From Escherichia coli (lineage in GTDB: Bacteria > Pseudomonadota > Gammaproteobacteria > Enterobacterales > Enterobacteriaceae): a stretch of DNA of 19,170 nt. Both the position numbers and the translations under genes were made by a program. The stretch is from NCBI RefSeq assembly GCF_003334255.1, contig NZ_QOWU01000071.1, one strand, 5' to 3'. Positions 297-18,579 of this stretch are shown here, one piece after another. Position 1 is the first letter of the stretch, and every line of letters starts with the position of its first letter. The notes under the pieces were generated by a model. That model saw only the letters and a list, made by a program, of their open reading frames with translations. It was not told the origin of the DNA and made no database searches.

Positions 297-492
297 AATA
301 TCCGGGATATTGCAGGCAAATGTAGTCCATCTGCACCTTTGATGTGCAGTCCATCACCCGTTTAAACGCCTCCATGTAGTCATAACAGCCCTGCAATAAT
401 TGCGCGTCACCATCCTCAGTCAGAGGAAACCGGCTGGCGTAGTCATGAACTATTTTTGCCAGTTGTTGCTGCTCTGTGGTTAAGTCGATCAT
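292..492 (-). CDS. Hypothetical small protein (66 aa), translationally coupled downstream of tnpR
   Basis: ATGA start/stop overlap with tnpR (ATG at 492-490, tnpR stop at 491-489). Its stop codon lies inside the putative IS66 terminus, so the C-terminus may be altered. No family recognised. Confidence 0.45.
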   Translation of the reverse strand: MIDLTTEQQQLAKIVHDYASRFPLTEDGDAQLLQGCYDYMEAFKRVMDCTSKVQMDYICLQYPGYL

Positions 493-1064
493 TTTTGTCC
501 TCGTGAAAGCGTTCTATAAACTGTTGGCCGCGACACTGCGAACAGATCCGCCAGATCGCTGATCGAGTACTGGCCGGTTTCCCGCATGCGGCACAACTCT
601 TTTTGCTGCTTTTCAGACAGCTTAGGTTGTTTTCCCCGCAGTTTTCCCTTTGCCCGCGCAATCGCCATCCCTTCCCGGGTACGCAGACGTATCAGATCGC
701 CCTCAAACTCAGCAAAAGTGGCCAGCACATTGAAAAACATCTTCCCCACAGGGTCTGCTGGGTCGTAGAGACTGGTTCCCAGCGCCAGCTTCACACCCCT
801 GGCCTGTAGTGCATCCGCTATCTCACGTGCGTCAGGAACTGACCGCGCCAGACGGTCAAGCTTGGGAACAACCAGCGTGTCACCGCTGCGCACAGCGGCC
901 AGCGCCTGATCCAGTCCGGGCCGTTGCCGGTTTGAGCCGGTCAGCCCTTTATCAAGGTAAATCCGGTCCGGGGAGACGCCAAGTCTGACCAGCGTTTCCT
1001 GCTGTGCGGTTAAATCCTGTTTATCAGTAGAGCATCGGGCATACCCGATCCGTATTTCAGGCAT
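489..1064 (-). CDS. tnpR: Tn3-family serine recombinase (resolvase)
   Basis: 191 aa; N-terminal catalytic region IRIGYARCSTDKQDL, DRLARS motif, C-terminal helix-turn-helix (SISDLADLFAVSRPTVYR); divergent from tnpA as in Tn3-family transposons. Confidence 0.9.
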   Translation of the reverse strand: MPEIRIGYARCSTDKQDLTAQQETLVRLGVSPDRIYLDKGLTGSNRQRPGLDQALAAVRSGDTLVVPKLDRLARSVPDAREIADALQARGVKLALGTSLYDPADPVGKMFFNVLATFAEFEGDLIRLRTREGMAIARAKGKLRGKQPKLSEKQQKELCRMRETGQYSISDLADLFAVSRPTVYRTLSRGQK

Positions 1065-1212
1065 AAATGTGTACGTTTAAGGGGCCATGAAAGAGATTGA
1101 TACCGTACCAGTTATATGAGACAACGTCAGCAGTGATTTTCTCTGAAGCGCAAATTTAATTTTTACCGTCCGCAGAGCGATCCTCTTACGGACATGATTA
1201 ATCGGGGTCAGG
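1065..1212. promoter_or_regulatory. res-like region with divergent tnpR/tnpA promoters
   Basis: 148-bp intergenic region between divergent tnpR and tnpA containing inverted half-sites (GTCCG...CGGAC); position fits a resolution site. Subsites not mapped. Confidence 0.45.
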
Positions 1213-4200
1213 ATGACAACGCGTGGCAAAGCTACAGGCAAAAGTGAACGGCTGGCGGTTTTAAATAGCGCCGAGCAGGAGGCACTGTATGGTCTTCCTG
1301 ATTTCGATGATGCACAGCGACTGGAATTCCTGGCGCTGGAGGAATCAGAACTGGCGCTGGCCTGTAGTCGTCAGGGTCTTCACGCTCAAATTTATTGCAT
1401 CCTTCAGATCGCTTACTTTAAAGCCAAACACCTGTTTTTCCGCTTCGGATGGGGTGATGTTAAGGACGACAGTAACTTTGTGCTGAGCCGTTATTTTCAG
1501 GGTGAATCACTTCCGGAGCTGACTCTCACCAGGCACGAGCGCTATGCTCAACGCGAAAAAATCTGCTCACTGTACGGTTACCAACCGTGGTCATCTTCTC
1601 TGTCGCCACAGCTTGAACAGCAGGCAGCCAACATTGTTCACCGGGATGTAACCCCCGGCTTTGTTGCCACGGAGCTGATTATCTGGCTCAACGAACATAA
1701 AATTATCCGCCCCGGTTATACCACGCTTCAGGAGCTGGTAAGCCGGGTCCTTTCTGAAGAAAGGCAGCGTCTGGGACGTATACTGACGGAACAGCTTGAT
1801 GATGCAACTATTGCTGACCTGGGCAGACTGACTGAACGTGATGATACCCTTTCCCGGCTCGCAATCCTCAGGCAGGATGCGCGTGACTTTGGCTGGCGCC
1901 AGATGGTTCACGAACGGGAAAAGCGGGCTATCCTGGAGCCGCTGCACCATAAAGCCTGCGATATTTTGCCAGCACTGAATATTTCGCAGCAAAACCTGCT
2001 GTACTACGCCAGTCTGGCAAATTTCTATACCGTTTACGATCTCCGCAACCTGAAACCGGAGCAGACCCGCCTTTACCTGTTGTGTTATGCCTGGGTTCGC
2101 TATCGCCAGTTCAGTGACAACCTGGTGGATGCGATGTTTTTCCATATGAAACAGCTTGAGGATGAGAGCCGCAGCGTGGCCAGCCAACTCATGGCTGATA
2201 TGCAGGAAAAATACCGGCGCGAAACGTCTAAAATCGGGCGTCTGCTGTCGCTTTATGTTGATGACAGCGTTCCTGACCCCACCACCTTTGGTGAAGTCCG
2301 CCGCCGGGCCTGGAAAATAATGCCCAGGGAGACGCTGAAAACTACAGCACAACGTATGAGCGTGAAGCCCGTCAGCAGACTGGCGCTACAGTGGCAGGCC
2401 GTGGATGGCATGACGGCATTAATACGGCGTCACCTGCGACCATTATATCTTTCACTCGATCTCACCAGCGTGGTCCGGGACAGCCCGTGGGCAGAGGCGC
2501 TTAACTGGCTCAGAACGGTGTTCAGCAAAAAACAGACGCTTTTGCAGCGGCCACTTGAGGAGTGCCCGCAGGTAACGTTACCTGCGCGGCTGCGCCCGTA
2601 CCTGCTGGAATTCGGTGAGGATGGTGAGCCCACAGGCCTGAATGCCGGGCGTTATGAGTTCTGGCTCTATCGTCAGATAAGAAAGCGTTTTCAGGCGGGA
2701 GAATTCCACCTCAATAATAGCCTCCGGCACCGCCATCTTTCTGATGAACTGGTACCGGAAGGGGAACAGGCCACAGTGCTGGCTGAAATGAACATCCCGT
2801 TCCTGCAGAAGCCCATTAAAACACAGCTAAAAAAACTGGCATCCGAGCTGCACCGACAGTGGAAAGTGTTTAACCGTGAGCTGAAACAGGGGAAACTGAA
2901 ACATCTGGAATACGATAAAGAAACGCAGAAGCTGACCTGGCATAAATCGGTGGCCAGCCGTTATAAGTCGCAGAATAAGCGTTTTTATGAGCAACTGCCA
3001 TTCTGCGATGTGACCGACGTCTTCCGCTTTGTTAACGGGCAGTGTCGATTTCTTCCCGCCATGAAGCCGCTGCAACCCCGTTACGCCAAAAAAGAAGCTG
3101 ATGTAGACAGTCTGATGGCGGTCATCGTTGCCCAGGCGATGAACCATGGCAACCATGTGATGGCGCGAACCAGCGATATACCATTCCATGTGCTGGAGAC
3201 CACGTACGAACAGTACCTTCGTCTGGCGTCTCTGCTCACGGCCAATGACTGTATAACCGATGCTATAGAAGCGCTACCGGTTTTTCCGCTCTATTCGTTT
3301 GATCCGGAGACGCTTTATGGAGCTGTTGACGGGCAAAAATTTGGTGTTGAACGTCCGACAGTGAAAGCACGGTATTCACGTAAATATTTTGGTCGTGGTA
3401 AAGGCATGGTGGCCTACACGCTGCTGTGCAACCACATTCCAGTCAACGGATACCTGATTGGCACAAACGACTACGAAGGCCATCATGTATTTGACATCTG
3501 GTACCGCAATACCTCAGCAGTGAAACCCACGGCCATTACCGGTGACATGCACAGCATCAACAAAGCCAACTTTGCGATCCTGCACTGGTTTGGCCTTCGC
3601 TTTGAACCCCATTTTACTGGCCTTAACAAACAACTTCAGGAACTGTACTGCACCAGAGACACGTCAGCATATAAAAAATGCCTGATCCAGCCTGCCGGTC
3701 AGATTGACCTGGACCTTATCACCCGCGAAAAAAGTAATCTTAATCGCATCGTCGCTACGCTGGGGCTAAAAGAAATGACGCAGGGAACGCTGATCCGTAA
3801 GTTATGTACATATACTACGGCCAGCCCGACAAGACAGGCGGTATTTGAATACGATCGGCTGGTTCGCAGCATTTACACGCTGAAGTATCTGCGTGACCCG
3901 CAACTGGAACGCAATATCCGTCGTTCCCAGAACCGCATTGAATCTTATCACCAGCTGCGTGCAGCAGTCGCCAAAGTCGGCGGCAAGAAGGAGTTAACAG
4001 GGAAAAATGACATTGAAACGGACATCAGTAATCAGTGCGGACGGTTGATCTCCAACGCGATCGTTTATTACAACTCCGCGATCCTGTCACGGTTACTGGA
4101 ACGGCTGGAAGCCGAAGGTAACGAAAGGGGCATAGAGACTCTGACCCGGATATCGCCGGTGGCCTGGCAGCACATTTTGCTGAACGGGCATTATACATTT

Positions 4201-4260
4201 CAGAACACTAATGAAATTATTGACCTGGATGCTCTGGTTGTCGGACTAAAACTGGGGTAA
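1213..4260 (+). CDS. tnpA: Tn3-family DDE transposase
   Basis: 1015-aa ORF, the typical size for Tn3-family TnpA; stop codon lies inside the terminal inverted repeat as in Tn3. Confidence 0.92.
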   Translation: MTTRGKATGKSERLAVLNSAEQEALYGLPDFDDAQRLEFLALEESELALACSRQGLHAQIYCILQIAYFKAKHLFFRFGWGDVKDDSNFVLSRYFQGESLPELTLTRHERYAQREKICSLYGYQPWSSSLSPQLEQQAANIVHRDVTPGFVATELIIWLNEHKIIRPGYTTLQELVSRVLSEERQRLGRILTEQLDDATIADLGRLTERDDTLSRLAILRQDARDFGWRQMVHEREKRAILEPLHHKACDILPALNISQQNLLYYASLANFYTVYDLRNLKPEQTRLYLLCYAWVRYRQFSDNLVDAMFFHMKQLEDESRSVASQLMADMQEKYRRETSKIGRLLSLYVDDSVPDPTTFGEVRRRAWKIMPRETLKTTAQRMSVKPVSRLALQWQAVDGMTALIRRHLRPLYLSLDLTSVVRDSPWAEALNWLRTVFSKKQTLLQRPLEECPQVTLPARLRPYLLEFGEDGEPTGLNAGRYEFWLYRQIRKRFQAGEFHLNNSLRHRHLSDELVPEGEQATVLAEMNIPFLQKPIKTQLKKLASELHRQWKVFNRELKQGKLKHLEYDKETQKLTWHKSVASRYKSQNKRFYEQLPFCDVTDVFRFVNGQCRFLPAMKPLQPRYAKKEADVDSLMAVIVAQAMNHGNHVMARTSDIPFHVLETTYEQYLRLASLLTANDCITDAIEALPVFPLYSFDPETLYGAVDGQKFGVERPTVKARYSRKYFGRGKGMVAYTLLCNHIPVNGYLIGTNDYEGHHVFDIWYRNTSAVKPTAITGDMHSINKANFAILHWFGLRFEPHFTGLNKQLQELYCTRDTSAYKKCLIQPAGQIDLDLITREKSNLNRIVATLGLKEMTQGTLIRKLCTYTTASPTRQAVFEYDRLVRSIYTLKYLRDPQLERNIRRSQNRIESYHQLRAAVAKVGGKKELTGKNDIETDISNQCGRLISNAIVYYNSAILSRLLERLEAEGNERGIETLTRISPVAWQHILLNGHYTFQNTNEIIDLDALVVGLKLG

Positions 4261-5420: not shown

Positions 5421-6293
5421 TCAGGGTGAGGCAGTGGCCAGCCGTGTGTAGTTGTTGTTCCGCGACATTATCATGCGCTCCTTCACGCGACGGTCGATTT
5501 CGCGCTTCACGGCTTCCAGGCTTCCCCGGAAACGCCCTTCCGCAATTTCACGCGTCAACTGCCGTTTCACCAGGGTGACAATGTCCTGACGGGTCCGGCC
5601 CGCATCACGGCGCGCACGGGCACGTTTCATGCCGTGGGCCTTGCGCTCTGCCTGGTAACTGCGGAAACGCTCGCGCACAAAACGCCAGGCTCTCGCTATC
5701 AGTTCATCCATACCCAGCGCATCCAGCCCCTGCTTTTTGCGCAGCTTGTTTTCCCATTCCACGCGGCTGCGGCGTGCGGAAGCCACCGCCTCTTCAGAGA
5801 TATCGAGTGAGGCAAACAGTGCCGGCGTGAACGTGATGTCGGTCGGAATGTTACAGCCAATTGTCGGGTCGTATTCCGTCTGGTAGGTCATCAGCCCCAG
5901 CTCAGCCAGGAACTTCAGGGCACGGGTGGCACGGGTGATGGAGAGTTTCCCGGCCTCAGACTCCGTCGCCAGTCCGCACTCAATGGCCAGCGTGGTGATG
6001 GAGCACTGCACGCGGTTGGCCAGCGGGTCATAGTGGAAACACAGCCCCTGCAGCAGCGCATCAATCGCCCTTCGGCGCAGCACTGGCGGCATACGCCGGC
6101 GCAGGCCGCGCGAACGTGCATACGCCACATGCGCGGCAAAATCAAAACGGGAGGTGAAGCCCACGGCCTTTTCCATCAGTTTTTCGCAGAACTTCAGCGT
6201 TCCGGCATCTTCACGGGGTGTGAAGACCGGATTCGGGTTCTTTACCTGACGGTATGTGCTTTCAGTAAATGAGGTCTGGTTCAGGGCCGCCAC
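5421..6293 (-). CDS. repA: IncFII-type replication initiator RepA (RepA1)
   Basis: 290 aa; [86 protein letters not shown] and the C-terminus RLATASP match R1/R100 RepA1 as I recall it, along the whole length. GTG start. Confidence 0.92.
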
Positions 6294-6370
6294 AAGCTGT
6301 CGCTTATGGCGGGCACAGAATGCCGTGCGTTAATGCACTGCAAGGGGTTGAATCTCTGACACGGTTTCAT
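6281..6370 (-). CDS. Leader-peptide ORF (29 codons) overlapping the repA start (tap/repA6-like)
   Basis: ATG at 6370-6368; stop TGA at 6283-6281 lies 10 nt inside repA, as in IncFII translational coupling. Peptide sequence itself not recognised. Confidence 0.4.
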
Positions 6371-6456
6371 ATATACTTATCCCGTATTCTGTGAGGCCCC
6401 CACTATCTTTCTTGAGCCCGCCAAAGTTCATCGAAAGATAGTGGGGGTTTTCCTTT
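6365..6456 (+). ncRNA. CopA-like antisense RNA (5' end uncertain)
   Basis: Plus-strand hairpin with 15-bp stem CCCCCACTATCTTTC/GAAAGATAGTGGGGG (6396-6447) followed by TTTTCCTTT; antisense to the tap start/RBS region. Possible -35 TTGAAT (6348-6353) and -10 TATACT (6372-6377). Confidence 0.45.
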
Positions 6457-7690: not shown

Positions 7691-7696
7691 CCCCAA

Positions 7697-7752
7697 TGCC
7701 CGGCACCGGTGACACCTGCGTGTACGGAGAGCGGCTGCCGGGCATTTTTTTT
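7697..7752 (+). terminator. Intrinsic terminator T2 (long hairpin with 9-bp closing stem) immediately upstream of the next RBS
   Basis: TGCCCGGCA ... TGCCGGGCA followed by eight T; ends 1 nt before the AGGA RBS of the gene at 7765. Confidence 0.5.
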
Positions 7753-7764
7753 CAGGACATCGTT

Positions 7765-8280
7765 ATGACCATTCAATCCCCGGAAAACCCTGTCATTCAG
7801 TTACTGGAGAATATGCTTGAAGCGCTCTCCACCTCCCCGGACAGCATCAACAATGAACGACGTCGCCGGCGCTTCCTGCTGAACTGGCTTGATTCCGCCC
7901 GACAGATGAGTGAGTTCAGGGGGATGCCTGAAGAGTTCACCGCCCTGCGCAAACTGCTGGCCACCAATACGGACATACCGGTAGAGAACACGCTGAAATC
8001 ACTGCTGGAAAGTGGCCACAACGCAGCACTGTATGACCTGTACCGCTTCCGAGCAGCGCTTGCCACGTGCAGGAGTCTGGGATGGCAGATTGGCACGTGC
8101 GCATGGAATGACCAGTTACTGAGTGAGACACTTTCCCGCGCACAGACCGGGAAACGTCATATCCTGCAGCTGAACAGCACCGGGGACACCTTTTCCACCA
8201 CGGGCAGAATGATCAGACCGGTGGCATTTTCATTAATCCATCCGGCCACCATCAACACGTCTGAGGTTGAAGAGATATGA
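7765..8280 (+). CDS. Hypothetical soluble protein (171 aa)
   Basis: ATG at 7765 with AGGA 8 nt upstream; longer ORF from 7696 rejected because its start lies inside terminator T2. ATGA overlap with the next gene. Confidence 0.6.
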   Translation: MTIQSPENPVIQLLENMLEALSTSPDSINNERRRRRFLLNWLDSARQMSEFRGMPEEFTALRKLLATNTDIPVENTLKSLLESGHNAALYDLYRFRAALATCRSLGWQIGTCAWNDQLLSETLSRAQTGKRHILQLNSTGDTFSTTGRMIRPVAFSLIHPATINTSEVEEI

Positions 8281-8810
8281 CCGGCATTGGTAACTGGATA
8301 GTCAGCGTGCTGATTGGATATGCTGCTGGCCCCCTGTGGGCTGCCACCCACCTGGGAACAAGCCAGGACCGGGGAAGCCGGGCCGCTTACGGTTACATCT
8401 ACCTGATAGACAGCATGATCAGACCGCTGGTGATGGTATTCGGGTTCTTTTTTGCATCGGTCTCCATCGTGGCCGGCGGCACCATTCTGAATGCGTTGTT
8501 TGGCGCGGCTCTGGTTAATGTGCAGGCGGACTCCCTTACGGGGTTATTCAGCATCGCTGGATTTTTGCTGATTTATGCCCGAGTCTGTACCACGCTGGTT
8601 GCGGCCGTTTTTGCGCTTCAGGCTTATCTGCCTGACCATGTGATTAATTTTCTGGGCGGACGTGACGGCGTTAATATGCTGGGGAATATGGCATCTTCGG
8701 TCAAAGATATTATTGCTGGCGGAAATACCAATATGCGCAGAACACCTGGCGTACGTGAAGAAAAACTGAAAAATATTAAAGGAGATGATAAAGACGGAAT
8801 AAAACAATAA
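8277..8810 (+). CDS. Hypothetical integral membrane protein (177 aa)
   Basis: Several hydrophobic segments (IVSVLIGYAAGPLWAA, LVMVFGFFFASVSIVAGGTILNALFGAAL, LFSIAGFLLIYARVCTTLVAAVFAL), hydrophilic lysine-rich tail; coupled to upstream gene. Confidence 0.6.
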   Translation: MTGIGNWIVSVLIGYAAGPLWAATHLGTSQDRGSRAAYGYIYLIDSMIRPLVMVFGFFFASVSIVAGGTILNALFGAALVNVQADSLTGLFSIAGFLLIYARVCTTLVAAVFALQAYLPDHVINFLGGRDGVNMLGNMASSVKDIIAGGNTNMRRTPGVREEKLKNIKGDDKDGIKQ

Positions 8811-8898: not shown

Positions 8899-9546
8899 AT
8901 GAGTACAACAAAAAACAGATATCCTTCCTGGTGGGCATATTATTACCTTGTTCGCAATGCGTATTTCATATTTGGCATACCATGCTTATTATTTTATGCT
9001 TTTTTCGGAACACTAATTGTTCATGATTCAGCCTTATCTCAAACAATGGATTTTGTTTTTGCATATGGATGCTGGGCATTAATAATTATCCCATTACTCT
9101 GGCTATATCTGAGAACCAGAGCGAAGAAAAAGAAAGTCCTGCAGGTTGTTCAGCAGATAAAAGAAAGCAGTCTCTTTGCGCCGACCAGCGATTATGAGCA
9201 ACTGTCATTCTCGAAGAGTTGTTATTTCGGGATCGACATTAAAAACGGCACCATGCTGTATGTGCGTATTTATCCAAACAATGTGATGGATGTGATTGGT
9301 CTGGATATTCACAACTTTACCCGCACGGTTGCTGAGGACGGCAAACTGGAAATCCATACCACCTATGTGAGTCTTCCGATGATCCCACTGGAAATCTCCG
9401 GCATCTCATCAAGGACGCTGGCCAACACCATGCACACCATGGCTGCACGTGGATATGAGTACAAGGAACGTTTCCCGCAGATGATCCGGTATCGGGTTAA
9501 AGAGTGGGAAAAAGTTGCCGGTGTACCTGTTGCAGAAGTGTTTTAA
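8899..9546 (+). CDS. Hypothetical membrane-anchored protein (215 aa); AT-rich
   Basis: GGAGG 8 nt upstream of ATG; two N-terminal hydrophobic helices then a soluble domain; last 35 codons duplicated downstream. Confidence 0.6.
   Translation: MSTTKNRYPSWWAYYYLVRNAYFIFGIPCLLFYAFFGTLIVHDSALSQTMDFVFAYGCWALIIIPLLWLYLRTRAKKKKVLQVVQQIKESSLFAPTSDYEQLSFSKSCYFGIDIKNGTMLYVRIYPNNVMDVIGLDIHNFTRTVAEDGKLEIHTTYVSLPMIPLEISGISSRTLANTMHTMAARGYEYKERFPQMIRYRVKEWEKVAGVPVAEVF
9433..9546 (+). repeat. Direct repeat copy 1 (3' end of the 215-aa gene)
   Basis: About 110 bp near-identical to 9938-10051. Confidence 0.8.
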
Positions 9547-9562
9547 GACGGTTATCTCATAC

Positions 9563-9591
9563 ATCCGGTTCATCTGAACCGGATTTTCTTT
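9563..9591 (+). terminator. Intrinsic terminator after the 215-aa gene
   Basis: ATCCGGTTCA-TC-TGAACCGGAT followed by TTTCTTT. Confidence 0.5.
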
Positions 9592-9614
9592 ACTGCAACA
9601 GATAACTTATGTCG

Positions 9615-9824
9615 TTATCGATAAAGTCGCCCAAGAGCCTTGATAGCTGCAACTTTAATTTCCATATCATCACTTTCACTTAATCTACGTAATTCCCTCT
9701 TTATGTTATCTGCCTGGCATCGACCTTCACCTAATGCATAGATCACAGCAAGTGTAACGTCTTTTGATTTATCCTTCATCATTTCAAACAAGAAAGTATT
9801 AGCTATCGCAGGAGACATACTCAT
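9615..9824 (-). CDS. Small hypothetical protein (69 aa), AT-rich, helical-repeat-like
   Basis: Strong RBS (AGAGGA, 8-nt spacer); sequence ...AAIKALGRLYR resembles a single HEAT/PBS-type repeat, tentative. Confidence 0.5.
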   Translation of the reverse strand: MSMSPAIANTFLFEMMKDKSKDVTLAVIYALGEGRCQADNIKRELRRLSESDDMEIKVAAIKALGRLYR

Positions 9825-9937
9825 AATAATTTCCTCTTTATAAAATTAACAAAGATACTCATTTAGATGTATAAACATCTGTATAATAAAATAACTCTTG
9901 CTAAACAAGAAATTAAAATCTTGCATCCACAGTCTCG

Positions 9938-10051
9938 CACACCATGGCGGCACGCGGATATGAGTACAAGGAACGTTTCCCGCAGATGATCCGGTATCGG
10001 GTTAAAGAGTGGGAAAAAGTTGCCGGTGTTCCTGTTGCAGAAGTATTTTGA
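9938..10051 (+). repeat. Direct repeat copy 2 (orphan copy of the gene 3' end)
   Basis: Differs from copy 1 at four positions plus the stop codon (TAA vs TGA); all four fall on third codon positions and are synonymous. Confidence 0.8.
9944..10051 (+). CDS. Orphan 35-codon ORF identical in protein sequence to the C-terminus of the 215-aa protein
   Basis: ATG-initiated MAARGYEYKERFPQMIRYRVKEWEKVAGVPVAEVF; no obvious Shine-Dalgarno, so expression is uncertain. Confidence 0.3.
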   Translation: MAARGYEYKERFPQMIRYRVKEWEKVAGVPVAEVF

Positions 10052-10083
10052 GGTAGCTATCAACTGTTAGACGATAATCCGTC

Positions 10084-10114
10084 AGCCGGTTTTCTCTGAA
10101 CCGGCTTTTTCTTT
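10084..10114 (+). terminator. Intrinsic terminator after the orphan module
   Basis: AGCCGGTT-TTCTCTG-AACCGGCT followed by a T-run. Confidence 0.5.
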
Positions 10115-10166
10115 TCAGGCAGAATGCCTGTCTGCCGTCCCTGTATCAGACTGTAATTTGCACAAT

Positions 10167-10206: not shown

Positions 10207-10488
10207 ATGCCATCTGCAACACAAACTGCCCGACTGGAAGCAAGAATCAGCACAGAACTGCATGCTATGCTGAAACGCGCTGCAGAAATCCAGGGACGCA
10301 CTATGACCGATTTTATCATTTCTGCCGTTCAGGATGCGGCACAACGCGCTATAGAACAAACCGATATCATCCGACTGTCCCGGACAGATCAGGAAATTTT
10401 TGCTCAGGCATTACTGTCACCAACAGAACCTAATGATGCGCTCAAACGGGCCTTTAAACGCCGTAATAATATTCTATACACAAAATAA
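10207..10488 (+). CDS. DUF1778-type (ribbon-helix-helix) antitoxin of a GNAT toxin
   Basis: 93 aa; AGGAGG RBS; ...LEARISTELHAMLKRAAEIQGRTMTDFIISAV... is typical of TacA/KacA-type antitoxins; immediately upstream of the GNAT gene. Confidence 0.85.
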   Translation: MPSATQTARLEARISTELHAMLKRAAEIQGRTMTDFIISAVQDAAQRAIEQTDIIRLSRTDQEIFAQALLSPTEPNDALKRAFKRRNNILYTK

Positions 10489-10493
10489 ATATA

Positions 10494-10982
10494 ATGTTTC
10501 AGCTGAAACCATTTAACAGCACATATGACAGAACCTCATTTTTATGTGGTTCTGATGCTCTGGACCGTTATATAAAAGAGCATGTCACACAGGATATTCG
10601 ACGACGCATCGCGGCCTGCTTTGTTGCTATAGATAACGATCATCGTATCATCGGATACTATACGTTATCAGCGGCCAGTATATTATTAACTGACTTACCT
10701 GAGCATTTGAGAAAAAAGCTACCACGATATCCTACCATCCCGGCTATTCGTATGGGACGCCTGGCAGTAAGTCTGTCATCAAAAGGAACAGGACTTGGTG
10801 GGACACTTTTAGCTGATGCGCTATATCGTGCATACACATCTGAAATTGCAGCATATGCGCTGATTGTTGATGCAAAAGATGACACGGCAGTCTCATTTTA
10901 CAAACATTATGGATTTATGACGCTCCCGGAGTCAGGGCGAACTTTATTCATGCCACTGGCATCATTATCTGCAATAGAATAA
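10494..10982 (+). CDS. GNAT-family acetyltransferase toxin (TacT/KacT/AtaT-type)
   Basis: 162 aa acetyltransferase fold (…RMGRLAVSLSSKGTGLGGTLLADAL…FYKHYGFM…), 5 bp after the antitoxin stop. Confidence 0.85.
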   Translation: MFQLKPFNSTYDRTSFLCGSDALDRYIKEHVTQDIRRRIAACFVAIDNDHRIIGYYTLSAASILLTDLPEHLRKKLPRYPTIPAIRMGRLAVSLSSKGTGLGGTLLADALYRAYTSEIAAYALIVDAKDDTAVSFYKHYGFMTLPESGRTLFMPLASLSAIE

Positions 10983-11553
10983 CCAGAATAAATCCGGGTA
11001 AAAAAGGGCGCATTGAGGTCAGCCTTCGCAACAATCCGGCGGCAGATTCCCTGCCGCCGTGTTGCCCGTTAACGTTTAACTTCGTAGGCTAACGTTGCCA
11101 CAAGCACCGTATTTCCCTGCTCGATACGAAATCCGCAAAGCGAATCCCTCACCATCCAGACAAAACACAGTATCGTCACACAGAGGACAATTAACATTGT
11201 TAAAAACGTTCGTTGTAGCATCGCAGCCCCTCCATTGCCTTTCGGCCGTTATCGGGCTACTATAATGTTGTCTAGGCATTACAGTAGAGCCCTGGGTTGA
11301 TTGATAAAAAAATCGCCTGGGGCTTCTGCTACATGCCGTCCACAAAACGCTTTCGGCATACAGCCTCAAGCGCCCGCAGCTATTCTAATCGTTTTTCAGT
11401 CTGCCACAATCGTTTTCCATCTAATGACATGTAATGCGCAACGGTATTTTTACGGGAAACAACACGGCAAGGATTCCCGGAACACGTCCATTATTTTATG
11501 GTTACGGACATCATGTTAAATCAGAAAGTAATAATGACCTGAAAGGAAATGGT

Positions 11554-11888: not shown

Positions 11889-13436
11889 TTATTTTTCTGA
11901 TTCAGCATTTCCGGTCAGTACAGGCTCTTCTGGCAAAGACATTACCGGAACGTCACGTTCGCCATTGAATACAGAAACACTTTCGGTGAAACCATTCTGT
12001 AACAAAGAAAAACTTAACGGCAGATTTTTGGTTTGTATCCCTGTGATCCATTGAAAAATCTCGGGAAAACGACGGGCGCTGATATGCACATGATTGAGGC
12101 GGTGCTCAGTAATATCACTTGCCATCATCATGAGAGGCACATCGTATCCCGAACGCAAACCTGGCGCATGATGCACAGGGGTGCTGTCTGAACTGACGGA
12201 TTGCCCATGATCAGAAAAATACAGCATGGCAAAATCATCGCCATGCTCTGTCGTCATGTTATAAATTGCCTGAAGAAACCGATCCAGCTTAAGCAATGTT
12301 GATAAATAACAGGATACTTTATTTCCGAATAATTCCCTGAACGGCTGTGCATCATTAAAAAGTCTGTCACAGGGATTAGGATGGGATCCCAGCATATGAA
12401 TGAAAATCACTTTTGGAGAAGACGAATTAACAGCTTCCCTGACATACTGAAGCATATCTTCATCATCAATGCGACGGGAAGAAGAGTTCCCTTCCTTAAG
12501 AAAATATTTCTTATCCGCACTGGCGGCGATGACAGAAATCAGCGTATCATGTCGCCCTAAAGAGCCCTGATTTGATATCCACCACGTTTCATATCCGGCT
12601 TTTCTGGCAAGCGTAACAATATTATTACCCGGATTACCTGTTTCAGTGTAATCAAGAGTCAGTGTTCTGCTGAGTGAACCTGTCGTATTCGGAGCAGCGG
12701 AGAAATACCCATTAATAAATATACCCGGAGCAGAGTTCAGCCATGGTGTTGTCGGCAAAGGATACCCATAAACAGAAAGATAATCCCGTCTGACACTTTC
12801 ACCAATTACGATAATTATAGTTTTATATTTCTTCTCCACACTCACAATATCCCATGAGTCTTTCTGATTGTTTTTCAGCGATTCATATCGCATCATTTCT
12901 TCTCTGGTTTCAGCTATCCCCGTTATTACATTCGTAACCATACGTTTTGGCCATGCATTTACTGACAATACGATAAAGAACAACAGAAAGATAAATCCCC
13001 GGTGGCTTTTTTCACGCTTACGCCAGAACCAGAATGTAAAAGCAGCAATGACCAGTGAAACAATAAAATAAAAAACAGGTATGCCTGTGATAAATTCACC
13101 TGCCTCATTTATATTTGTCTGCATTACAGACGCAATAAAACTGTTGTTTATTTTTCCGTAAATCATTCCAACCGGAGCATAGAATGCACTTAACAAAAGA
13201 AAGATACAGACACACGTCGCTGAAATAACATTCCGCCGCCCCAACGACATCATCAGGAACAATATAAGTACATTCCCTGTGGCGTTTTTCACTGTATATC
13301 CGCAGCACCATGTAACAAGTACAGAAAACAACAGATAAATCAGTGACTCTTTACACCACAACATAAAATAAAACTGTTTTGCCATCTCAAAAGCACATTT
13401 GGATTTTTCTTTAATACGAGACACGCCAGTCATTTT
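11889..13436 (-). CDS. Phosphoethanolamine-transferase-like membrane enzyme (sulfatase/alkaline-phosphatase superfamily, EptA/MCR/OpgE-like); start uncertain
   Basis: N-terminal hydrophobic helices followed by a catalytic domain with IIIVIGESVRRDYLSVYGYP, KVIFIHMLGSHPNP and AMLYFSDHGQS, resembling the VVGETARADHVSFNGY / MLHQMGNHGP / MLYVSDHGES blocks of MCR/EptA. AT-rich. ORF open to 13445 (TTG); first ATG at 13436. Confidence 0.75.
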   Translation of the reverse strand, partial: KMTGVSRIKEKSKCAFEMAKQFYFMLWCKESLIYLLFSVLVTWCCGYTVKNATGNVLILFLMMSLGRRNVISATCVCIFLLLSAFYAPVGMIYGKINNSFIASVMQTNINEAGEFITGIPVFYFIVSLVIAAFTFWFWRKREKSHRGFIFLLFFIVLSVNAWPKRMVTNVITGIAETREEMMRYESLKNNQKDSWDIVSVEKKYKTIIIVIGESVRRDYLSVYGYPLPTTPWLNSAPGIFINGYFSAAPNTTGSLSRTLTLDYTETGNPGNNIVTLARKAGYETWWISNQGSLGRHDTLISVIAASADKKYFLKEGNSSSRRIDDEDMLQYVREAVNSSSPKVIFIHMLGSHPNPCDRLFNDAQPFRELFGNKVSCYLSTLLKLDRFLQAIYNMTTEHGDDFAMLYFSDHGQSVSSDSTPVHHAPGLRSGYDVPLMMMASDITEHRLNHVHISARRFPEIFQWITGIQTKNLPLSFSLLQNGFTESVSVFNGERDVPVMSLPEEPVLTGNAESEK

Positions 13437-13591
13437 CCTGTACAAAAACAGACAATCATTTCAACGCATGGATATTTATATGAAACAGCTCACAAAAATA
13501 CCCTGCTCTGTCTAGCAAGATTACATATTATCAGGTTTTGTGTTTACAGCAACTGCTCCCCGGACCAGATTATTCGCATAACCCGATGAAT

Positions 13592-18279: not shown

Positions 18280-18366
18280 GTTAGTTGAAAAGAGACTTCC
18301 TCCGGGCCAGAGCCACCAACTCTCCCTGGGATCGCAAAAAAGCCGGCCTCACCAGTCGGCTTTTTT
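18280..18366 (+). ncRNA. Candidate antitoxin small RNA, copy B
   Basis: Promoter-like TTGCGA-17 nt-TATTCT (18245-18273); terminator GCCGGC-CTCACCA-GTCGGC plus T-run (18341-18366). 18286-18305 is a direct repeat of 18052-18071 in the copy-B peptide leader. Confidence 0.35.
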
Positions 18367-18579
18367 GTGCCTGTCTCTCACCACCTTCTGCTGTTCCTGT
18401 GAAAATGCCCTGCTGAATTCATCCCTGCCCGGTCATTACCGGCGATTGTTCGTATTCATTCCACTCAGCCTCATCACGAAATTAATCCATTTATCTATGG
18501 AGGAATCCCCGTGTCTTACCAACAGACGTCTGCCAGTGAAGCACCAACAGAGATTTGGTATATCGTCGGTATCATATGC

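Follow-up and report, generated by a model that had tools for sequence, protein, structure and literature searches.

A probable 5'-truncated excA remnant behind excA and a HEAT-repeat gene on Escherichia coli I-complex plasmids

Analysis of a 19,170-nt stretch of Escherichia coli DNA (contig NZ_QOWU01000071.1; the whole stretch is called the window in the following) revealed a 215-aa gene whose 3' end is found a second time shortly downstream. The gene is excA, the IncI1-type surface or entry exclusion gene of an I-complex (IncK2/Z) plasmid, and in all probability its second end (copy 2) is a non-functional, 5'-truncated remnant of another excA allele, that is, a scar of recombination and not a gene. 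The evidence for this reading comes from the base-by-base comparison of both copies, from the layouts of the locus in public plasmid sequences, and from the changes that copy 2 has taken up in related plasmids.

The duplicated excA end and its surroundings

A repeat search across the 19-kb window resulted in a single long direct-repeat family, namely a repeat of 125 nt with 93% identity at 9432-9556 and 9937-10061 and a start-to-start spacing of 505 nt. For a repeat of this length and identity in 19 kb we consider a chance origin impossible. The following features were assigned to the region, with coordinates given as positions of the window:

8899-9546, + strand: excA, intact, 215 aa (NCBIfam NF033891; RefSeq excA, WP_016232752.1)
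9432-9556, + strand: repeat copy 1, the last 37 excA codons, the stop codon and about 10 nt more (from repeat search and base comparison)
9563-9594, + strand: terminator 1, hairpin 9563-9584 with T tail; counterpart of the IncI1-type excA terminator (alignment with loci L012 and L013)
9615-9824, - strand: gene for a 69-aa HEAT-repeat protein (WP_000062945.1), convergent with excA; Pfam HEAT_2, E=2.7e-6
9825-9936, - strand: upstream region of the HEAT gene with its presumed promoter, up to the junction with the putative excA remnant
9937-10061, + strand: repeat copy 2, probable 5'-truncated excA remnant; orphan ORF at 9944-10051, RefSeq pseudogene span 9920-10051
10084-10115, + strand: terminator 2, hairpin 10084-10106 with T tail; excA terminator of HEAT-less K/Z-type plasmids

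The initial annotation had described the last 35 codons of the 215-aa gene as recurring about 500 bp downstream in an ATG-initiated ORF, with four differences that are all synonymous third-position changes, with similar terminator hairpins behind both copies, and with a 69-aa gene with a strong ribosome-binding site on the opposite strand between them, and the coordinates and comparisons given here agree with each of these statements. The 5' edge of the repeat lies 8-9 nt ahead of the ATG at 9944 (GCACACC/ATG), its 3' edge about 10 nt beyond the stop codon. Base-by-base comparison of the 35 sense codons revealed 101 of 105 identical nucleotides, and the four differences (GCT/GCG, CGT/CGC, GTA/GTT, and GTG/GTA, copy 1 named first) correspond to 4 changes per about 23 synonymous sites and 0 per about 82 non-synonymous sites. 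Two further differences had escaped the initial annotation: the stop codons are unlike (TAA in copy 1, TGA in copy 2), and the 3' flanks of the two copies are identical in 40 of 73 aligned columns (55%, with several gaps), compared with 96% in the coding part. Each hairpin has a 9-bp GC-rich stem with a T run behind it, and the fold energy is -15.2 kcal/mol for terminator 1 and -21.0 kcal/mol for terminator 2. An Rfam search of the whole window at the gathering thresholds gave no match between 8800 and 10200.

The 215-aa protein matched NF033891 with 267.8 bits (cutoff 100) over profile positions 2-210 of 210, and the window region is 100% identical to E. coli IncK2/Z plasmids, e.g., NZ_CP116070.1 and NZ_CP060062.1. 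The ORF of copy 2 reached 31.4 bits against the same cutoff and covered profile positions 180-210 only; it is a fragment and no member of the ExcA family. This is also how RefSeq treats it, namely as a partial pseudogene, "ExcA, incomplete, missing N-terminus" (H4P50_RS26710 in NZ_CP060062.1 and MF261_RS26065 in NZ_CP092236.1). The RefSeq start at 9920 would make copy 2 somewhat longer than the repeat. Local alignment of 9866-9936 with eight excA alleles gave scores no better than those of shuffled controls, so that the longer version was ruled out and the boundary of copy 2 was set at 9937, where the partial excA homology begins abruptly.

The 69-aa ORF carries an AAGAGGA motif about 7 nt ahead of its ATG. 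By tblastn, its product was found in 1,215 PLSDB records with 85-100% amino-acid identity, all of them from Enterobacteriaceae and nearly all typed as conjugative. The gene is annotated at every locus carrying it and follows directly after excA at every locus read; it is a real conserved gene of the I-complex. Searches with the protein gave no match in NCBIfam and, with PADLOC, a marginal HEAT-ARM match only (E=0.007). Upstream of the gene we noted a palindrome (AGATGT-N4-ACATCT) at 9865-9880.

Layouts of the locus in public plasmids

Based on megablast and blastn searches against PLSDB and on the alignment of representative loci, three layouts were distinguished. In class A (92 PLSDB records), excA is followed by terminator 1, the HEAT gene, copy 2, and terminator 2, and all records share one identical junction, ...CAGTCTC/GCACACCATG, from which we infer a single event. 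In class B (59 PLSDB records), a K/Z-type excA is followed directly by terminator 2; there is no HEAT gene, and the locus is shorter by exactly one repeat unit (500/505 bp). Class C comprises about 1,120 records with an IncI1-type excA, terminator 1, and the HEAT gene; these are 76-82% homologous to the window, and the similarity ends at 9865. When the excA end of each class B or class C locus was compared by blastn with the whole fetched locus, no second excA end was found. In complete genomes of E. coli, 55 plasmid records showed the junction, compared with 321 that had the K/Z form with a single copy.

Comparison of classes A and B revealed the difference as a clean insertion or deletion. 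Locus L006 (class A) and locus L009 (class B) share the same ExcA protein sequence and are set apart by a clean indel of 500 bp; no mismatch was seen from position 1993 to position 2682, nor in about 200 nt upstream and about 40 nt downstream of the indel. Between the window and L008 (class B), a clean 505-bp indel was found. Related plasmids thus have the 69-aa gene plus one repeat copy either together or not at all, the pattern that the initial annotation had proposed to look for, and its further suggestion that repeats of this length could mediate precise deletion of the intervening gene fits these natural variants.

An insert between a gene end and its duplicate, with the unit gained or lost as a whole, is also the layout expected if a small mobile cassette with the HEAT gene had inserted site-specifically into excA and brought a replacement gene end along, as integrative islands do at tRNA genes. 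We regard this origin as extremely unlikely. The 380-nt spacer at 9557-9936 holds the HEAT gene only and contains no integrase or other recombinase, no transposase, no terminal inverted repeats, and no defined ends, and a repeat of 125 nt far exceeds the target duplication of a transposition event. In addition, all HEAT genes found were on I-complex-type plasmids of Enterobacteriaceae, and the position of the gene directly after excA extends to the IncI1-type loci without the repeat. Since about 1,120 class C plasmids have the HEAT gene without copy 2, it is a long-standing convergent neighbor of excA and not a cassette that landed in it. From the proposal that a gene 3' end was reconstituted after insertion of a small cassette, the geometry can therefore be kept, i.e., an incoming end with the old end left behind, but not the cassette.

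Divergence of the two ends and constraint on copy 2

The states of copy 2 recur in complete genes. The intact excA of the class B loci L008 and L010 has the same GTT at codon 29, GTA at codon 34, and TGA stop codon, followed by an identical 3' flank over its whole length, terminator 2 included; behind the intact excA of L008-L011 and of the 321 E. coli plasmid records, terminator 2 recurs in identical or near-identical form, and the end and flank of copy 2 are 97.8% identical to hundreds of other intact excA records. The flank of copy 1 aligns instead with the IncI1-type excA terminator and the HEAT gene. Judged from these alignments, the copies seem to derive from two distinct excA alleles, whose ends would each have diverged within a complete and constrained gene, and the high identity of the coding part next to the low identity of the flanks would then be explained because the alleles diverged while they were part of an intact excA. 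The other two synonymous states of copy 2 (GCG and CGC) were absent from the 14 functional alleles sampled. Moreover, the single-copy class B plasmids could all be deletion derivatives, in which case the argument from copy 2 states in intact excA genes is partly circular.

The absence of non-synonymous differences also speaks for ends that diverged within intact genes. At a dS of about 0.2, an orphan that had evolved neutrally during half of the divergence would have kept all 82 non-synonymous sites unchanged, as observed, with a probability of about 0.0003. Therefore, most of the divergence appears to predate the truncation, and copy 2 would look selected because it was cut recently from an intact excA variant.

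These results also bear on a simpler origin, in which the plasmid copied its own excA 3' end with its terminator beyond the HEAT gene by unequal or illegitimate sister exchange and the similarity of the copies was kept by conversion or by chance. The sharp 5' boundary and the high identity of the repeat speak for it, as do the two terminators, which are clearly related and share the common core TCTGAACCGG. Likewise, a donor plasmid without copy 2 was not found: the 70-nt stretch 9866-9936 is present only in plasmids that also have copy 2, and all PLSDB records with this class-specific segment upstream of the HEAT gene are of this kind. Nevertheless, we consider such a duplication in situ improbable. 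A tandem event over 9432-9936 would have doubled the HEAT gene, of which there is one copy only; neutral divergence after duplication would have hit non-synonymous sites too and is difficult to reconcile with flanks that differ by indels and almost half of their columns beside a nearly unchanged coding part; and hundreds of intact excA genes have terminator 2 as their regular terminator. The paralogue-specific states at the third positions of codons 2, 4, and 34 are fixed in all 10 remnant-bearing lineages sampled, which argues against ongoing conversion; gene conversion as the cause of the similarity between the copies was ruled out by these sites.

Having left its gene, the presumed remnant seems to have begun to change. 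In 87 of 92 class A records, copy 2 encodes M-K-T-L-G instead of M-A-A-R-G, due to a 4-nt cluster (AAG ACA CTC) with all substitutions within 9 nt. The clean version was found in five of the 92 records only, which form the clone group of the window. Copy 2 of L007 and L015 additionally carries E10A, that of L014 an additional silent change. Neither AAGACACTC nor its reverse complement, sought in the fetched loci as a template for the KTL cluster, occurred elsewhere. In total, the functional excA ends (n=14, copy 1 and class B) revealed eight synonymous and no non-synonymous changes, and copy 2 (n=10) three synonymous and five non-synonymous ones (Fisher p=0.026, or p=0.13 if the KTL cluster is taken as a single event, on which the non-synonymous evidence largely rests). 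These counts indicate a relaxed constraint on copy 2 relative to intact excA, less clearly so with KTL as one event. No frameshift or internal stop was detected in the 10 copy 2 sequences read.

Codon 2 ends in G and codon 4 in C in both types of copy 2, so the version in the window is most simply regarded as ancestral and least decayed. The window lineage has also kept an intact DUF1778/GNAT toxin-antitoxin pair, which most relatives have deleted; an ancestral state of its copy 2 fits with the retention of this pair.

A retained C-terminal module, the other possibility raised by the initial annotation, was not supported. According to this idea, selection maintains expression of the 35-codon ORF or its RNA as a free ExcA C-terminal module, which may modulate exclusion or TraY recognition, for example. 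It draws on the synonymous-only difference in the window lineage, on an ORF that starts with ATG, has its own terminator, and is open in 10 of 10 sequences read, on an extended -10-like sequence (TGTATAAT) read by eye on the + strand at 9880-9887, and on some GenBank records that list a 35-aa protein (P0002). We nevertheless judge it very unlikely. The 20 nt ahead of the ATG at 9944 lack a purine-rich Shine-Dalgarno motif, a promoter scan of the + strand from 9600 to 9944 gave no sigma-70-like hit, and terminator 1, upstream of copy 2, would block read-through from excA. With three residues replaced in most relatives and a fourth in some, three protein versions (MAARG.., MKTLG.., and MKTLGYEYKA..) exist among 10 sequences, which is not the conservation of an independent small protein gene, and outside the KTL cluster conservation is no higher than in the adjacent non-coding DNA. 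Non-synonymous changes in the second copy of relatives were just what the initial annotation had named as a sign of a decaying remnant rather than a selected element. Finally, copy 2 is dispensable: the same excA type occurs with a single end in 59 PLSDB and 321 E. coli plasmid records, and the roughly 1,120 IncI1-type plasmids lack a second end as well.

Proposed origin and relation to known systems

In our preferred reading, copy 2 goes back to recombination between two plasmids. An I-complex plasmid of K/B/O/Z type would have had excA followed directly by terminator 2, a layout that is still common, and would have recombined with a relative bearing the older arrangement of excA, terminator 1, and HEAT gene. 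The left crossover would have been homologous and located inside or upstream of excA, and at the right end an illegitimate junction would have formed with the resident excA around codon 179. The incoming segment would have supplied a full excA 3' end together with terminator 1 and the HEAT gene including its upstream region, leaving the last 37 codons of the resident excA and terminator 2 stranded downstream. The synonymous differences would be inherited allelic differences, built up under purifying selection on intact excA, and the remnant would be too young in the window lineage to display decay. Later on, the repeats of 115-125 nt and the conserved 3' two-thirds of excA would have offered homology for recombination by which the 500/505-bp unit (HEAT gene with one repeat) is removed or reinstated and the hypervariable 5' part of excA is exchanged. 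The order of these events and the nature of the right-hand junction are inferred from the present-day layouts. In line with such exchanges, at least eight ExcA N-terminal alleles were found before the same block of HEAT gene and remnant, on near-invariant C-terminal two-thirds; the C-terminus is identical at the protein level in all 14 functional alleles, and the variability of ExcA is N-terminal.

Allelic variants of excA and traY of IncI1 plasmids and recombination between them have been documented (PMC8004404). The mosaicism of the I-complex excA/traY region (R64, ColIb-P9, and R621a types), with divergent excA variants exchanged between near-identical plasmids (PMC8004404), resembles the situation described here. 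The papers found on excA/traY describe clean replacements, though, and mention neither a leftover excA end nor a linked gain or loss of a HEAT gene. In our literature search, no paper on this excA remnant was found. The feature as such is already known as the partial excA pseudogene of RefSeq, with the same place between the HEAT gene and the downstream genes, no structural difference from copy 2, and 100% identity in NZ_CP060062.1; the RefSeq annotation gives no origin. It is well explained as an ordinary recombination scar and of little importance for new biology.

Orphan modules are known from contact-dependent inhibition (cdiA-CT/cdiI) and Rhs systems, in which the orphan consists of a variable functional tip and an immunity gene and acts as a reservoir of diversity. 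Like these, copy 2 is a gene-end fragment that follows closely on the full gene, was presumably stranded when the end was replaced, and has homology that permits further recombination. In contrast to them, it corresponds to the part of ExcA that does not vary, adds no new coding content, and lacks a partner gene. Integrative elements, on the other hand, rebuild the 3' end of a tRNA, tmRNA, or protein gene and thereby produce the attL/attR duplication. The excA locus shares with them a duplicated gene end that brackets an insert next to an intact gene, but it has no integrase, its 380-nt "insert" holds a long-standing neighbor gene, and its repeats are diverged alleles with no identical att core.

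The remnant shows how a synonymous-only pattern can mislead, since the traces of past selection persist in a piece of a constrained gene that was truncated not long ago. It records recombination at the exclusion locus of I-complex resistance plasmids and marks a lineage of apparently single origin (92 PLSDB records), so that it could serve as a typing marker. The 500/505-bp polymorphism indicates that recombination actively uses the conserved 3' part of excA as a substrate, which is relevant to changes of exclusion specificity in these plasmids. A role beyond this is highly doubtful, be it a 35-aa peptide or short transcript from 9944-10051 that tunes exclusion, e.g., as a decoy for the TraY-ExcA contact, or a repeat pair that acts as a recA-dependent on/off toggle of the HEAT gene in plasmid populations.

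As a minor observation, the same fragment is elsewhere named "ethanolamine utilization protein EutE/EutG". A homologous-protein search for a full-length ExcA with the in-frame upstream residues (LASTVSHTM...) returned only short fragments of this name and one ExcA fragment; since full-length ExcA proteins of any kind were missing from its results, it has little bearing on the existence of a parent allele. EutE/EutG is a misnomer for an ExcA C-terminal fragment, and this annotation error has been propagated in the databases.

Deletion of the transfer region and the mosaic structure of ExcA

The transfer region of the window plasmid has been lost by deletion, and two fragments that directly adjoin each other lie at 7696-8810:

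7696-8280, N-terminal fragment of traC (RefSeq partial pseudogene)
8277-8810, last 177 codons of traY (RefSeq partial pseudogene)

The plasmid type call was mobilizable, not conjugative. With the transfer region deleted and both traC and traY partial, the intact entry-exclusion gene excA is therefore retained without its cognate TraY and the mating apparatus. Among 14 K/Z-type plasmids, the N-terminal c. 75 residues of ExcA, i.e., its membrane-spanning part (window 8899-9130, residues 1 to c. 77), were hypervariable with at least eight alleles, and the other c. 140 residues were nearly invariant, all DNA changes there being synonymous. This mosaic pattern of the aligned sequences suggests that the 5' part of excA has been exchanged repeatedly.

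Public databases carry C-terminal fragments of ExcA under the name "ethanolamine utilization protein EutE/EutG" (window 9920-10051; protein ids P0001-P0009), which is an annotation error. Among these entries, even the 35-aa orphan ORF of copy 2, the 5'-truncated excA remnant, was deposited as a protein (P0002).

Copy 2 and its flanking sequences

In nine related loci (L003-L007 and L014-L017), codons 2-4 of copy 2 (window 9947-9955) were changed from GCG GCA CGC to AAG ACA CTC, resulting in four substitutions within 9 nt immediately 3' of the orphan ATG, with the other 96 nt almost unchanged. A search of the fetched loci for a local template for templated mutation at these codons revealed none.

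Upstream of the gene for the 69-aa HEAT-repeat protein, the region specific to plasmids with the excA-HEAT-copy 2 layout harbors two overlapping elements:

9865-9880, perfect palindrome AGATGT-ATAA-ACATCT
9880-9887 (+), extended -10-like sequence TGTATAAT

The palindrome could be an operator, and locus L007 carried a 7-nt insertion at this site (window 9865-9887). Downstream of copy 2, the window displays an intact toxin-antitoxin pair:

10207-10982, DUF1778 antitoxin and GNAT acetyltransferase toxin

About 695 bp of this pair were missing in L003, L006, L007, L009, and L015 (deletion endpoints 10295-10989), leaving only the first c. 30 codons of the antitoxin gene.

RNA elements, mobile genes, and a sibling plasmid

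Further features of the window comprised Rfam matches, Tn3-family genes beside the replicon, and an uninterrupted transferase ORF:

489-4260, Tn3-family resolvase and transposase
6306-6455, PK-repZ pseudoknot (Rfam), adjoining the RepA/RepZ gene (5421-6293)
11219-11375, sok antisense RNA (Rfam), belonging to a hok/sok module
11889-13445, phosphoethanolamine transferase ORF, 518 aa
17536-17623, AgrB-like antisense RNA (Rfam)
18281-18368, AgrB-like antisense RNA (Rfam)

The two AgrB-like matches lie in the part corresponding, matched by region only, to a stretch of the closely related plasmid pDETEC45 with two annotated DinQ-like dqlB toxin genes. In pDETEC45, which is elsewhere identical to the window, the phosphoethanolamine transferase ORF is broken by IS1; since this split is absent from the window, the latter derives from a sibling plasmid.
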